Shown in pieces: positions 31,153 to 40,695 of a stretch of 64,000 nucleotides of DNA. The notes beneath the pieces were generated by a model. The model ran no database searches and was not told the origin of the DNA. It saw only the letters and a program-made list of their open reading frames with translations. Positions within the stretch are counted from its first letter, which is position 1; each line of letters opens with the position of its first letter. A program made the position numbers and the translations under genes. The stretch is from Parachlamydiales bacterium (lineage in GTDB: Bacteria; Chlamydiota; Chlamydiia; Chlamydiales; Rhabdochlamydiaceae), in NCBI GenBank assembly GCA_963705295.1, contig OY970065.1, positions 1,760,001-1,824,000 of the forward strand, written 5' to 3'.

Positions 31153-31899
31153 TTATGGCACGCCAGCATTGAATTTATCCAAAAAGAATTTTTTAAACCA
31201 GGCTGGGATTTGATCGGTTTTCATCTCGAGGGAGCTGCCATCGGTGATTTCTGCAAGCCAAACATGTTCATGGGTTGAATTATCGAAGATATAGGCTCGA
31301 TGTGTGAATTGAACAGCCTGTACTAATAGATCCAGAGAACGTTTGTAACGACTTACAATCTTGTCTTCGGGTACAGAATGACCTCCCCTGCTAACTCTAT
31401 ATCGGACGCGAGAAACATTTATCTCAGGATTTTCTGTGGCCACGTAATATAGATAAGTACGATAACCTCTGGATTGTGCTTTGCGGAGAAGCTCTATTTT
31501 ATCAGGAAAAGACATGACAGTTTCAAAGGTGAAAGATGTTGTAGATTGGATTAACTTTTGGCGAATAAAGTCAGCTGCAACGGAGGCAAAATAAGCATCG
31601 ATCTTTGATTCGTGAAAGGATAGTTTATTCTCATTAAAGCGTAATGTACATGTCTCGTCCAGGCTGCCCGATTCCAGCAGCAGAGGGGATTTGTTAAAGA
31701 AGCCGAGGATTTCTTGTTCTGATGTTGTTACTTGATAGGCATCAAGATCGAGAAACCCATAATTTCGGATTTCTTTTTCAATTTCATCAGGATTTATATA
31801 GACGCCAAGGAGCTCTTGACGAAGCATTTTTTTAAACGTGCTTTTGCCCGATCCATTGGGTCCAGCAAACATACGAAGACGTGGAGTATTTAGAATCAT
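31153..31899 (-). CDS. Zeta-toxin-like P-loop kinase
   Basis: AGPNGSGKST, YINPDEI, FTFETVMS, RV..GGH.VP..KI.SRY.RSL. Confidence 0.8.
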   Translation of the reverse strand: MILNTPRLRMFAGPNGSGKSTFKKMLRQELLGVYINPDEIEKEIRNYGFLDLDAYQVTTSEQEILGFFNKSPLLLESGSLDETCTLRFNENKLSFHESKIDAYFASVAADFIRQKLIQSTTSFTFETVMSFPDKIELLRKAQSRGYRTYLYYVATENPEINVSRVRYRVSRGGHSVPEDKIVSRYKRSLDLLVQAVQFTHRAYIFDNSTHEHVWLAEITDGSSLEMKTDQIPAWFKKFFLDKFNAGVP

Positions 31900-32123
31900 T
31901 TTAATTCAAACCTTTGGCCACGCTTTACTGGTATCCAAGCAGGTAATTTCTTAATGAATTTACGCGTTCCATCAGGGAACACCTCTACGAGACTTCCATT
32001 TTCACTGACGAGCACACTACTGCCGGATGCAAGAGCTGCCCAGTATGCTTGTTTGAATGCCACCTCAGCTAGCTCTGGAATGTGCTCTTCCAAATAGTCG
32101 AGAGCCTTTTCACTTAAATCCAT
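31896..32123 (-). CDS. Small protein coupled to the zeta-like kinase (putative antitoxin)
   Basis: 75 aa, ATGA overlap with the downstream gene. Confidence 0.65.
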   Translation of the reverse strand: MDLSEKALDYLEEHIPELAEVAFKQAYWAALASGSSVLVSENGSLVEVFPDGTRKFIKKLPAWIPVKRGQRFELK

Positions 32124-32218
32124 GATTCTATCTCGATTTAGTTTTGAAACAGAAACTTTATTCTAAGAGATTTTCTCTATTTTCTTCATGACATTTTTCC
32201 GCATGATAATATTTCTCA

Positions 32219-32331
32219 GACAAAAATTTACGACGAATGATACAGCTTGCTGAGGCTTTCCCTGACGAATAGCGAGAATCGATGTGGCGAAGCCACAGCA
32301 AGCAGGTTGTCACCTTTTGACCTCTCGGGTT
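32219..32331. repeat. Partial or divergent copy of the palindromic MITE-like repeat; its intact terminus is the IS insertion site
   Basis: CAGCAAGCAGGTTGTCACCTTTTGACCTCTCGGGTT matches termini of the copies at 34474-34659 and 40509-40695; left arm degenerate. Confidence 0.75.
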
Positions 32332-32439
32332 CTCTAATTGCGCACAAGGGCAAATATAAATTCTCTCTTTTTTCTCTCTAAAGCCTCCTCGCCGGTATTT
32401 CTCTTGCGAAATTAAAGGCGAAATAATCTTCAGGACTTT

Positions 32440-32620
32440 GAACTTAGGAAACCAATGTAAGAGAAGTTCCATGGTTCTCTTCGGGGTCTTTTTTGGAGAA
32501 TTATATTTGGATTCTCCGCCCCATTATGCCGACCGAAATGAAACAGGCAAGACAATGTTAATAACGGCTTCCAAGAGCCAACCCGACTTCGTCTTTGCCT
32601 ATCTCTTCGGTTTTTCTCCT
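32440..32620 (-). ncRNA. Putative bridge/seek RNA of the IS1111 element (boundaries approximate)
   Basis: Two stem-internal loop-hairpin units; loop strands GUCGGGUU and UUAUUAACAU match the target and left junction; AGAGAACC matches the right junction. Confidence 0.75.
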
Positions 32621-32661
32621 ACATAATTTAAGCTCTTTGCCTGTTTGTTTTTCTTTTTGGT

Positions 32662-33693
32662 TTAAGCTACTTTTGGCTCGCCATAAATAAATTGTTTATT
32701 TTCAATCATCATACGATGCATGATCACTGCTAGTTTTCTTCCCACCGCTAGGGCTGCTTTCTTTAGCCCCTTTTTTCTCATAATCTTTAATCCCCAAGCT
32801 TTCAGCTTACTCCATTTCTTGCTTCTTGTAAGAATCACTACTCCAGCTTCGACTAATAAAGATCTGAGTTCATTGGATCCACATTTGGAAATTTTTCCCT
32901 GCCTCTGAACATCCCCCGATGCATACTGCGTTGGAGTCATGCCTAGATAGGCCCCTACAGATTTAGAGTCTTTAAATCGCGTTGGATCAAAAATTTCTGT
33001 TTTATAGGTTAGGGCCGTTACAGGTCCTATTCCAGGCACGCTCATGAGTTGTCGAACTTCCTTGTCTTGACTGACTAATTGGAGCATTTTTTTATCGATC
33101 TTCTCGATTTCTTTCACAAGATGATCAAATGCGCTCAGAATGGCTGTTATACTGATTATGACTATCTCTTCATGTTTTTCTAAGTGCTTCATAACAGTGG
33201 AAGAGAATTTTTTAGCTCCCACAGACCCTAATCGTATCCCATAGATTTTGAGCAGTCCTCGAACTGTATTTTTTAGCTGTGTTTGCTGATTGATCAAGGC
33301 TCTTCTAGAAACTAACAAAATTGATCGTTCTACAGATTCCTAGGGTTTACAGTGAACTCGCGTATACAGATTTGACCGAAGCGCTTCTGCGATTCCTCGC
33401 GCATCATTTTTGTCGGTCTTGTTTATTTTCAGAGAGAGAATTGGGCTTAGAGTTCTTGCATCCATACAGATGGGGTCTATAGCTCTTTCCCTAAATCCTT
33501 TGATTAAATAATGAGATAATGCCCCACTTTCAAAACCAACAATAATTTCTTGAAGACCGATTTTTGAAAAATAATCCGCTATCAATTGTGGGTCTGTTTT
33601 TTCCGACCCTTCATGGACAATTTTTCCATGCTCGTTGAGTACACAGATAAAAGTTCTTTTCATTGCGACATCTAATCCAATATAATGTTTCAT
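32662..33693 (-). pseudogene. IS110 transposase/recombinase with in-frame TAG at 33342-33340
   Basis: GLDV, FESG, KTDKND (RuvC-like DEDD), VPGIG, QYASG serine motif; both ORF pieces are in the same frame. Confidence 0.9.
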
Positions 33694-33789
33694 GGGTTAC
33701 TCCAGTTTTTTGCTCTTTATGAGCGTTTGAGATTTGAAAAAATCTCGTTACATTGGAGAGTTTATACTACTCCGTTTTTGGAGTAACCC
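33694..33789 (-). promoter_or_regulatory. Structured 5' leader of the transposase that sequesters the RBS
   Basis: 11-bp perfect IR GGGTTACTCCA (33694-33704) / TGGAGTAACCC (33779-33789) covering GGAG directly before the ATG, enclosing small hairpins. Confidence 0.6.
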
Positions 33790-33836
33790 CTTGTTAATGG
33801 CGCAATTATGGCATGTTAATAAGATGATACGGCCCT

Positions 33837-34346
33837 TTAGCTTTTTAAATGTGCCGCAAGTGTTTCGAAGAGAAACCATGTTCTTCTTTCAGTTTCATCA
33901 ATGAAAATTTCTAGGATGCTGGTCGTTGCCACATCGTTATTGTCTTCGCAGACTTTATGAGCAGCGCGCATACGGGCAGTATAATCTTGATTGTCTTTCA
34001 TCAGGGATTGAAGCATTTTTTCGGGTTCTAAAAAAGCCCGATCCTCATCCTTGACATTTTGTAAACGACTGATATGACCAATAGAACATATCGTTGTTCT
34101 TCCCATTTTGCGAACACGTTCTGCCAGAATATCAATCATGGCAAAAATTTGATCTGCTTGTTCATCGAATAAAAGATGATAGTCTCGAAAGTGACAGCCG
34201 GACATATGCCAATGGAAATTTTTACTTTTGACATATAAGGCGAACGCATCAGCCACTAATGGGTTAATATTTTCTGCTATTTCTTGACGCCCTTTTTCAC
34301 TGAGATCGCTTGGCGTTGCGAGTTTTACGGGTACTTCTTTTTTCAT
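33837..34346 (-). CDS. dps: Dps DNA starvation/stationary phase protein
   Basis: LYVKSKNFHWHMSG.HFRDYHLLFDEQ, D.LAERVR, ERRTWFL. Confidence 0.92.
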   Translation of the reverse strand: MKKEVPVKLATPSDLSEKGRQEIAENINPLVADAFALYVKSKNFHWHMSGCHFRDYHLLFDEQADQIFAMIDILAERVRKMGRTTICSIGHISRLQNVKDEDRAFLEPEKMLQSLMKDNQDYTARMRAAHKVCEDNNDVATTSILEIFIDETERRTWFLFETLAAHLKS

Positions 34347-35713
34347 TGTTTAACTCCTTTTTTATATTCAGGTTTGTAGACATTTTTCTGAATTAACTCG
34401 TGGATGTTATCCGGTCTGGTAACACGAGATAATTTTTGATCGAAAATATTTTTAGCTATTCTTTCCGCCGCTCTTATTAGCCCGACGGGCAAACAGGTGA
34501 CAAAATGCGTCAGCGAACTCCCGTCAGATCGAAGCGTTAGCGGTCCGACTGACGAGGACCCCATCGATAGGTTAGGGCGGAGGCTAGGCCGAGGAGGAGG
34601 ATCGATCTGGCAGGAGTGTAGCAAGCAGATTGTCACCTGTTTGCCTGTTGGGTTAATAATCGCCTCGAGAAACTCTTTTGTGGGAATATTTGGATGTGCA
34701 TAAGGCTTTTGATAATCCATGAGGTCGGATCGTTTTGATTCGATTAAACCCTTTACATCAAATAAAGAAATTCGAGACTGTGCATCTTTTAAAGAAAGAC
34801 CTTCTTGCACCATCACCGATACAATTAAATCTGCTATTCCAATTCCTGCTGAACCGGCTCCTAAAAATAAAATCTTTTGTTGGCTTAACTTTTGTTTTTT
34901 TATTTTCGTTGCATTGATGAGCCCGGATAAAGTAATTGCAGCCGTTCCCTGAATATCATCATTAAAACAGCAGACTTTCTCACGGTATCGTTTTAAAAGA
35001 TCAATTGCATCGCTGCCCGTCCAGTCTTCAAAATGGATACAACACCGTGGAAATACCTCCTGCACAGCTTCGACAAATTCATCCACAAATGCATGCAATT
35101 CTTTCTGAGAAGGTCTAGTTTCCCTGATACCTAAATATAACGGATCATGAAGAAGGGATTCGTTATTTGTTCCAACATCCAGAAAAAGAGGCAGTAAATA
35201 TTTAGGAAGAACACCAGCTGCGGCTGTATAAAGTTGTAATTTGCCAATAGGAATGCCCATCCCATTGGCTCCAAGATCACCCAGTCCAAGAATCCTTCCT
35301 CCATCCGTGACACAAATAAAGCGTACATCGTTTTCTGGCCAGTTTTTCAGAATCTCCTTAATGTGCCCCCGTTGTTTGATAGAAATGTACATCCCTCTTG
35401 GTTGACGAAATCCGATATCAAACTTTAGGCAGGCTTCTCCAATCGTAGGATCATAAATAATGGGTAAGAAATAAGCAGGATCAGACATGATCGTTTTGTA
35501 AAAAAGAGTTTCGTTATGATCTAATAAATTCATCAAGTAAATGTACCGTTCATAATCGGTAGGTTTATGGCCTAATTGTTTAAGAACTCTTTTGTGCTGC
35601 AATTCGATGGTTTCTATTGTACCTGGCAATAATCCAGTCAAACCGAGCTGCTCCCTTTCTTGCTGAGAAAATGCAGTCGATTTATTTAAGGCAGGGTTTT
35701 GTAAAATACTCAT
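34343..35713 (-). pseudogene. NAD-dependent malic enzyme; part of the C-terminal domain replaced in frame by a repeat element
   Basis: VTDGGRILGLGDLG, GIPIGKL, FNDDIQGTA, GAGSAG; the usual ALSNPT and GQANN segments are missing, with repeat-derived residues in their place. Confidence 0.8.
34474..34659. repeat. 186-bp palindromic MITE-like element (copy A, inside the malic enzyme gene)
   Basis: About 30-bp imperfect TIR TTATTAGCCCGACGGGCAAACAGGTGACAA / TTGTCACCTGTTTGCCTGTTGGGTTAATAA; core nearly identical to the reverse complement of copy B. Confidence 0.9.
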
Positions 35714-40050: not shown

Positions 40051-40515
40051 ATGAAAATTGCGATTAGTTCAGACGAGTATTTTCCGATCATTGACCTTTT
40101 AATCGATGCTGTAAAGAAGAGGGGGCACGAGGTTCATTATTTTGGACCTTCGGCTGGAGGAAAATCGATCGATTGGCCTGAAGTGACACTGAAAGCTGTA
40201 GAGGAACTTAGAGAAGGAAAAGCTGATGAAGCCATTGTTCTTTGTTGGACCGGAACAGGATGCACGTTAATCGCCAATAAAATCCCCGGAATCCGGGCTG
40301 CACTTTGTTTTGATGCAGAGACAGCAAAAGGCGCAAGGACTTGGAATCATGCCAATGTTCTGGGGCTTAGTCTTCGACTCACTTCTCCTGCCATTTTACA
40401 AGAGATTTTACAGGCATGGTTTGATACTCCTTTCAGCCAAGATCCTTGGAATCTTCGACAAATTGAGAGAATTACTCAAACGGAAAGAAAAGCGACATCA
40501 TGGCTTGTTTACTAA
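40051..40515 (+). CDS. rpiB: RpiB/LacA/LacB family sugar-phosphate isomerase
   Basis: LCWTGTG...ANKIPGIRAALC, WNHANVL; stop codon supplied by the repeat terminus. Confidence 0.8.
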   Translation: MKIAISSDEYFPIIDLLIDAVKKRGHEVHYFGPSAGGKSIDWPEVTLKAVEELREGKADEAIVLCWTGTGCTLIANKIPGIRAALCFDAETAKGARTWNHANVLGLSLRLTSPAILQEILQAWFDTPFSQDPWNLRQIERITQTERKATSWLVY

Positions 40516-40695
40516 CCCGAGGGTCAAATAGGTTACAACCTGCTTGCTGCACTCCTGCCAGATCGATCCTCCTCCTCGGCCTAGCCTCTCGCCCTAACCT
40601 ATCGATGGGGTCCTCGTCGGTCGGACCGCTAACGCTTCGATCTGGCAGGAGTTCGCTGACGCATGTTGTAACCTATTTGACCCTCGGGTTAGTAG
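40509..40695. repeat. 187-bp palindromic MITE-like element (copy B)
   Basis: Perfect TIR TACTAACCCGAGGGTCAAATAGGTTACAA / TTGTAACCTATTTGACCCTCGGGTTAGTA; inner IR ACTCCTGCCAGATCGA / TCGATCTGGCAGGAGT. Confidence 0.9.

Follow-up and report, generated by a model that had tools for sequence, protein, structure and literature searches.

A stop-interrupted IS1111-group element in a Chlamydia-like bacterium and its predicted bridge RNA, whose guides match the terminus of a resident palindromic repeat

How does an insertion sequence (IS) come to lie within the last few base pairs of a repeat that its host genome carries in many copies? This question is raised by a locus of a Parachlamydiales bacterium, located in a 64,000-nt stretch of assembly GCA_963705295.1 (contig OY970065.1, positions 1,760,001 to 1,824,000 of the forward strand; hereafter the window, counted from its first letter). 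An IS1111-group insertion sequence of 1484 bp occupies positions 32331..33814 on the minus strand and is bordered by two copies of an AC core (minus strand, 33816-33815 and 32330-32329). Its ends were set by comparison with relatives that have a common left end, ATGCCATAATTGC, and a common right end, GCGCAATTAGAGA. The first-pass annotation of this DNA had described an IS1111-type bridge recombinase with RNA guides programmed against a palindromic repeat family. We consider it highly probable that the locus is best explained as a defective copy of an RNA-guided IS1111-group element aimed at the repeat terminus.

On the forward strand, the element is enclosed by CTCGG-GTT (32324-32331) and GTT-AATAA (33815-33822), which in the orientation of the element reads TTATT-AAC, element, AAC-CCGAG. 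Both junction words, from which an empty site CTCGG-GTT-AATAA had been rebuilt, were found in place, as were the four cited repeat termini (34647-34659, 34474-34486 as reverse complement, 40509-40521 as reverse complement, and 40683-40695). One side of the site is formed by a single 61-bp arm of a resident palindromic repeat (32271-32331, forward strand), the last base of which is shared, or ambiguous, with the element end. On the other side (33815..33822, forward strand), the GT core copy and a T are followed by AATAA, the final 5 bp of the terminus, which the insertion has separated from the arm. The remainder of the interrupted repeat copy is missing; a BLAST search of 32190-32331 against the genome aligned query positions 82-142 only, and the identity of this arm to many genomic copies was 88-97%. 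In the genome, 43 other termini match the 61-bp arm, nearly all of them reading ...CTCGG GTT AATAA (the rest are near variants) before they continue into unique DNA. Because the matching termini diverge right after AATAA, the element is placed inside the very end of the repeat, 5 bp from it with a 3-nt core and 6-7 bp with a 2-nt core. The 12-mer TCGGGTTAATAA was counted at 47 genomic sites on both strands compared to 0.38 expected from base composition, and a loose genome search revealed 27 complete repeats of 163-190 bp, 19 solo starts, and 19 solo ends.

The element carries a gene for a DEDD transposase, or bridge recombinase, on the minus strand (32662..33693; 343 codons), which is interrupted by an in-frame TAG at codon 118 (33340..33342), between the RuvC-like domain and the coiled coil. 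Upstream of this gene lies a 5' non-coding leader of 121 nt, and downstream a 3' non-coding right end of about 330 nt. The N-terminal part of the transposase matched Pfam PF01548 (DEDD_Tnp_IS110; E-value 7.6e-09, residues 5-108, with the gene interrupted after codon 117) and the C-terminal part matched PF02371 (E-value 3.5e-23). Among solved structures, phmmer matched the recombinases IS621 (8wt6, E-value 9.8e-11) and ISCro4 (9t56), aligning NKTDKNDAR of the transposase with NKTDTVDAR of IS621, the motif with D102/D105. The serine motif GMTPTQYASG aligns with TPRRYESG of IS621 around S241 (Y-x-S-G). Furthermore, the intact relative L028 scored 241.6 bits (cut-off 140) on the NCBIfam model NF033542, named 'IS110 family RNA-guided transposase'. 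Two sub-terminal inverted repeats of 9 bp are kept in relatives, i.e., TAATTGCGC on the left (33800..33808, minus strand, 6 nt from the element end) and GCGCAATTA on the right (32335..32343, minus strand, 4 nt from the element end); their length is below the 11-13 bp given as usual in the cited part of PMC11187229 and inside the 7-17 bp given in that of PMC11208160. According to the relevant section of PMC11187229, the IS1111 group is separated from the IS110 group by a transposase of 330-350 aa, a long downstream non-coding region, and sub-terminal repeats. The 343 codons of the window gene, and the 343 aa of its relatives, lie within this range. Based on the two Pfam domains, the homology to IS621 and ISCro4, the NF033542 match of L028, the non-coding layout, and the inverted repeats, the element is best classified as an IS1111-group member of the IS110 family.

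The non-coding right end is predicted to fold into a structured RNA of the bridge RNA or seekRNA type (32456..32623, minus strand), in which an outer stem surrounds a target-binding arm and a donor-binding arm. Folded as a single sequence, the right end reached a z-score of -3.58, and the consensus fold of 27 sequences comprises 45 pairs, 12 of them with compensatory changes. In the target-binding arm (32545..32600, minus strand), the stem AGGCAAAGAC/GUCUUGCCU closes an internal loop that is followed by the apical hairpin GGCUC...GAAGCC. Single-sequence fold and 27-sequence consensus alike close the target internal loop by AGGCAAAGAC/GUCUUGCCU, and the hairpin is invariant in the alignment. 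Across the 27 RNAs, variability is highest in the columns of the two target-loop strands, whereas the stems either do not vary or vary with compensation. The two strands are GUCGGGUU (32580..32587, minus strand) on the 5' side and UUAUUAAC (32557..32564, minus strand, followed by AU to 32555) on the 3' side, facing each other in one internal loop as first annotated. The 5' strand resembles a right-target guide, since it is the complement of the top strand over core and right target (AACCCGAC), and matches the actual right flank at 7/8 positions. The 3' strand, which has the sense of left target plus core and resembles a left-target guide, is identical to the left flank at 8/8 positions. The complement of the top strand is thus found 5' of the match to the bottom strand.

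Matches of 7-8 nt in an AT-rich region are short, and they could have arisen without any guide function, by chance, as part of a terminator hairpin, or as carried target DNA. We used 20,000 dinucleotide-preserving shuffles of the 330-nt 3' region as a control. The 8-mer recurred 103 times and a match of 7 nt or longer 251 times, i.e., such words appear singly in about 0.5-1% of shuffles, which leaves some room for chance. However, both guide words in the right order within 60 nt were obtained in 0/20,000 shuffles, and one word is sense and the other antisense with an invariant hairpin between them. The same arrangement, two words on opposite strands that are split by a conserved hairpin, led us to reject a captured copy of the target in the 3' region.

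The guide words can also be followed through relatives. A protein search of 60 related genomes and the window's own gave a match in 17/61, mostly fragments, and a scan of genome contigs led to 28 loci, almost all from metagenome-assembled genomes (MAGs) labelled Chlamydiae, Chlamydiales, Parachlamydiales, Simkania, or Verrucomicrobia. These record titles agree with the Chlamydia-like host assumed at first. A pattern with the conserved stem words and N at the guide positions was applied to metagenomes and retrieved 39 stretches, comprising 28 relatives and 11 unrelated ones. The latter (L057, L064, L065, L071, L074, L075, L080, L083, L086, L092, and L093) matched the degenerate pattern without having the closing stem or the element ends, and were dropped before the guide tables were made. 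The alignment (A1) contains 27 distinct RNAs, leaving out L058 and L069, which are cut by contig ends, and seven duplicates. Covariation was analyzed for 33 non-redundant elements from Chlamydia-like genomes and metagenomes.

In this set, right guides matched their own flanks at 4.97 of 6 variable positions on average (n = 30) vs. 2.74 for cross pairs (n = 772), and left guides at 5.05 of 6 (n = 22) vs. 2.99. When each of the 17 distinct right-guide words was represented once, 76 of 102 positions were matched compared to a permutation mean of 38.7, a value reached by 0/100,000 permutations. The five distinct left-guide words matched at 21 of 30 positions, compared to 12.4 in permutations, of which 2/120 reached 21. 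Individual relatives illustrate the range of right guides and right flanks, including L029 (CAAGAUGUU with AACATCTTG, 9/9), L082 (GCAAAUGGGUU with AACCCATTTGC, 11/11), L056 (CGAGCGGUU with AACCGCTCG, 9/9), and L004 (AGUGGGUU with AACCCACT, 8/8). Two misses were kept in the counts: L031, scored against the first of two tandem right-end copies, and L068, with a 1-nt offset, reach 1/6 each because of the duplicated right end and the register shift, respectively. The loop words thus vary in step with the flanks on stems that remain constant, and we regard an origin of the matches other than as guides as hardly credible. Fold, loop-flank matches, and covariation jointly bear out what had been proposed, namely a 3' bridge RNA or seekRNA with a target loop written against a resident multicopy repeat terminus. 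This RNA would presumably be made and bound by the recombinase.

Several observations weigh against parts of this reading. The right guide of the window carries a G where the site has C, which accounts for its 7/8 match. Among the relatives, the left guide of L028 matches its flank at 4/9 positions only, the right guide of L094 fits only with a 1-nt gap, and the guides of L063 and L077 match six contiguous bases; these, too, were kept as genuine misses. As many relatives have one common target, the number of independent retargeting events is lower than 17. In the donor loop (described below), the core-facing bases of the 5' strand (AA at window 32523-32525) do not complement AC. An Rfam cmscan of 31500-35000 with E-values up to 10 gave no match in the right end, with the reservation that the presence of an IS1111-type model in Rfam 15 was not established; the two matches obtained in this range were chance matches to microRNAs, both outside the non-coding right end. 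Among public sequencing runs, no RNA run was listed with the stretch, which says nothing either way, and the best DNA run contained 0.14 of the sampled words. Finally, just one stop codon and the copy number speak for the inactivity of this copy.

Which bases form the core? The first-pass annotation had proposed 3 nt (AAC, or GTT on the forward strand). Both junctions of the window indeed read AAC, both target-loop strands contain it (as GUU and AAC), and the distant relatives L036, L037, and L051 show AAC at both junctions. However, while the right junction always reads AAC (...GAGA-AC) in relatives, the left junction reads GAC in 17/22 non-redundant relatives with a left flank and CAC in L043-47 and L040. 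Moreover, the left guides of L056, L072, and L088, for which no left flank was captured, end in UAC and predict TAC. Because left junctions read GAC, TAC, or CAC and the right junction always AAC, the common core is AC (GT on the forward strand) and measures 2 nt, not 3. The third base of GTT is the last base of the element, which coincides with a target base here. We consequently regard a 3-nt core as very improbable and the 3-nt duplication as a coincidence of this site, since AC is all that the two junctions have in common in relatives.

The donor loop was recovered as first annotated, with AGAGAACC at 32480-32473 and GGCAU at 32530-32526. Its 5' strand GGCAU (32526..32530, minus strand; 5 nt) is the complement of the left-end ATGCC (33814-33810), and its 3' strand AGAGAACC (32473..32480, minus strand) consists of the five terminal bases of the right end followed by the core AC and a further C, so that AGAGAAC corresponds to right end plus core over 7 nt. 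AGAGAACC is invariant in the close subfamily. The 5-nt word covaries with the left end in L061 (ATACC/GGUAU) and in L043-47, L051, and L035 (ATACT/AGUAU), but not in L029, L031, and L090. The core-facing bases of the 5' donor strand are AA, AG, or GG in the window subfamily and complementary GU in the L043-47 group. A further candidate, namely that the recombinase mobilizes the palindromic repeats themselves as donors, was rejected, as the repeat ends resemble neither the element ends nor the donor-loop words.

Positions next to the guides connect target and donor. The right guide always ends in GU-U, and the final U faces the last A of the element; by analogy, this U would take the position of the target-loop handshake guide of IS621. 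On the left, the window guide is followed by AU, identical to the first two bases of the left end, and had been likened to handshake positions for this reason. In agreement with this remark, the base following the left-guide core in relatives corresponds to the initial base of the left end in 22/22 cases, with A in 20 elements with left end A and U in only two elements with left end T. The two U cases probably belong to one lineage and reflect one evolutionary event. For IS621, the cited part of PMC11208158 describes handshake guides for top strands only.

Do other copies of the element land in repeat termini as well? DNA, protein, and nhmmer RNA-profile searches of the window's own genome found no further copy, and because the element is single-copy there, this comparison needed other genomes. 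L077 (86% DNA identity, intact gene) shares the left guide of the window element, and its right guide, which ends in CGGGUU, is closely related to that of the window. Its site, TTATTAAC on one side and AACCCGAGAGGTCAAAAG... on the other, is the same repeat terminus as that of the window element, and since the outer left flank differs, L077 is an independent insertion. L094, which shares this left guide and differs in its right guide, lies between ATATTAAC and AACCTCGTC, which is not obviously a repeat.

Relatives in two further genomes are directed to other palindromic repeats. In G061 (L030, L032, and L034), the guides are ACAAGAGGUU and UA(U/A)UAGAC, with ACAAGAGGUU/UAUUAGAC as the loop-word pair of this type. 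The uninterrupted target TTAGACCTCTTGYGTAA was found 13 times in this genome compared to 0 for a reversed-pattern control, and the targets lie in inverted pairs at a distance of about 187 bp, each pair marking both ends of a palindromic element other than that of the window. In G062, five copies (L043-L047) of relatives with 48% protein identity are present; their uninterrupted 19-mer target was counted 215 times in this genome (control 0), and many of these sites form inverted pairs with a spacing of about 62 bp. In three genomes, with three mutually unrelated repeat families, the guides point to a position a few bases within the terminal inverted repeat. Because the G061 and G062 relatives are retargeted to other palindromic repeats, landing in the ends of host palindromic repeats appears to be habitual in this clade, the guides being rewritten to suit the respective repeat family. 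Going further, one could propose that the Chlamydia-like IS1111 clade follows the palindromic, partly in-frame (RPE-like) repeats of its hosts and, jointly, that the base after the left guide is the bottom-strand counterpart of the handshake guides. We put this twofold claim forward as tentative, and hold it to be rather doubtful as a whole.

Some relatives showed additional features. G062 is a Parachlamydiales MAG that combines a very abundant short palindromic repeat with at least five copies of the related element. In L034, a repeat terminus of the window type (TATTAACCCGAC...GGTGACAAGATGC) begins 8 nt past the right junction (8-45 nt); because this terminus lies 8 nt beyond the site, both repeat families and the element co-occur in the genome of L034. 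In L031 (3109-3150) and downstream of L037, two unrelated relatives, a terminal segment of 21-22 bp of the right end, with the AC core in it, stands twice in tandem before the target flank. Repeated insertion or excision at a site already occupied could have left this trace. The same-genus genome G005 retains just 657 bp from the 3' side of a related element (L004, 1170-1818; 86% DNA identity) and nothing of its 5' part; this remnant includes a complete predicted bridge RNA that has guide words of its own and a right flank to match them.

Is the window copy still active? At the position of the TAG codon, the four closest relatives (L094, L077, L082, and L073) encode Gln, L028 encodes Glu, and L031 Ala. 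Six of the eight translated genes are open, the window gene has the nonsense codon, and L030 is frameshifted. In view of the in-frame TAG and the single copy, with 47 empty sites, the element is probably inert. RNA, ends, and inverted repeats of the window copy carry every column that is invariant in relatives, and most likely we are dealing with an inactive relic of which the RNA part and the ends still look intact. Regarding the recombinase claim of the first-pass annotation, the RNA-guided IS1111-type family was confirmed, while activity was overstated for a single copy with a stop codon in its gene. A still mobile copy would require that the TAG is an assembly error, is read through, or is compensated by a recombinase in trans, and would mark a recent arrival. 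The frame is otherwise open over 343 codons with the catalytic motifs present, the preserved invariant columns fit this alternative as well, and so do the 47 empty sites. However, the TAG stands in the assembled sequence, at a codon that specifies Gln in the four intact relatives closest to the window copy; the genome searches gave neither another recombinase gene nor another bridge RNA, and we saw no sign here of TAG being read as a residue. Continued mobility is therefore improbable in our view.

Taken as a whole, the explanation by a defective RNA-guided element implies the following steps. The recombinase gene is followed by a right end of about 330 nt, which would encode the bridge (seek) RNA with its target and donor loops. 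The 5' strand of the target loop would pair with the top strand of core and right target (AAC CCGAG), and the 3' strand with the bottom strand of left target and core (TTATT AAC), while the donor loop, likewise around the AC core, would find its partners in the two ends of the element itself (ATGCC... and ...AGAGA). A circular copy would then have inserted in one orientation at the AC located 6-7 bp inside the terminus of a 163-190-bp palindromic repeat, a terminus that offers about 47 near-identical landing sites in this genome. Within the clade, guides have been rewritten many times and, in at least three genomes, are aimed at the ends of a resident palindromic repeat family. The order of strand exchange is something we infer. 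A -35-like TTGTGC in the right end (32342..32347, minus strand) and a -10-like CATAAT in the left end (33810-33805, minus strand), both kept in relatives, would be joined at a spacing of 17 nt in a circle with one AC and may serve as a putative junction promoter. Junction promoters have been described for the family (PMC11187229, Introduction).

With respect to the surroundings, a repeat copy of 186 bp (34474-34659) lies in frame inside a malic-enzyme open reading frame (ORF) at 34343-35713 (minus strand). The match to the NAD-binding domain of this enzyme covers profile positions 1-94 of 258 before the repeat, and because it stops there, the domain seems to lack about 160 residues. Complete repeat copies with a length of 174 or 186 bp are divisible by three, which does not apply to the 163-164-bp class. 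The repeat arm and the element have as their direct neighbour what looks like a toxin-antitoxin pair (31153-32123, minus strand), in which a 75-aa ORF shares 4 nt with the ORF of a 248-aa P-loop protein matching Pfam Zeta_toxin (E-value 1.8e-12).

The locus extends RNA-guided bridge recombinases to Chlamydia-like bacteria, a group with few genetic tools, and provides a readable series of natural retargeting, with 17 guide words on one conserved scaffold. Intact natural relatives, e.g., L077, L094, L082, and L028, are directly testable. The palindromic repeats, some of which lie inside genes, are landing pads as well, which bears on how repeats and IS elements shape reduced intracellular genomes. 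If the clade does follow host repeats, the repeat ends might act as safe harbours in gene-dense intracellular genomes. Our understanding of how the family works is unchanged. A limited literature search on IS110, chlamydia, and palindromic repeats gave no match by title or abstract, and we do not claim that chlamydial members are unreported. IS1111-group elements with bridge RNAs or seekRNAs that land in repetitive extragenic palindromic (REP) repeats, miniature inverted-repeat transposable elements (MITEs), or transposon termini are already described, and the novelty first attributed to the locus was overstated: according to the cited parts of the sources, IS1111 of Coxiella burnetii lands in the MITE QMITE2 (PMC5896051), 93% of IS1111 elements are predicted to have a bridge RNA in their right end (PMC11208160), and the NCBIfam family name already includes the RNA guidance. 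Landing in REP repeats is reported in the relevant sections for ISPa11, IS621, and ISPpu9 (PMC11187229; PMC11208160; PMC12288879).

Among known systems, IS621 resembles the window element, as far as the cited parts of PMC11208160 and PMC11208158 describe it, in its DEDD plus Ser recombinase, target and donor internal loops, 2-nt core, REP-type targets, and, in the latter source, a handshake base, adjacent to the right-target guide, for pairing with the final donor base. In contrast to the window element, the same sources place IS621 in the IS110 group, with the RNA in the left end, the reverse guide order, and the core CT instead of AC. Sequence similarity between IS621 and the window transposase is confined to the C-terminal domain. 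IS4321 and IS5075 reportedly land in transposon terminal repeats. These IS1111-family elements inside the terminal inverted repeat of another mobile element occupy the 38-bp ends of large plasmid transposons, whereas small non-autonomous palindromic repeats are the target here. Of the IS1111-family seekRNA elements ISEc11, ISPa11, ISKpn4, and ISPst6, ISPa11 targets REP, and natural retargeting among relatives is described in the cited part of PMC11187229. Their guide order (section 9 of the same source) is that of the window element, while none of the four, as presented there, comes from Chlamydia-like bacteria, the RNA here is predicted from sequence, and the terminal extensions are 6 + 4 nt plus a 2-nt core instead of the 7 + 3 given there. 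The Coxiella IS1111, according to the relevant parts of PMC5896051, is likewise found in an obligate intracellular host and targets a palindromic MITE family of 150-190 bp with tens of copies; most of its occupied MITE copies are partial or diverged, just as one 61-bp arm is left here. However, its host belongs to the Gammaproteobacteria and not to Chlamydia-like bacteria, repeat and target word are different, and about 20 copies contrast with the one defective copy of the window. Unlike what is described there for the Coxiella element, the window element inserted 5-7 bp away from the outermost base of its target's terminal inverted repeat.

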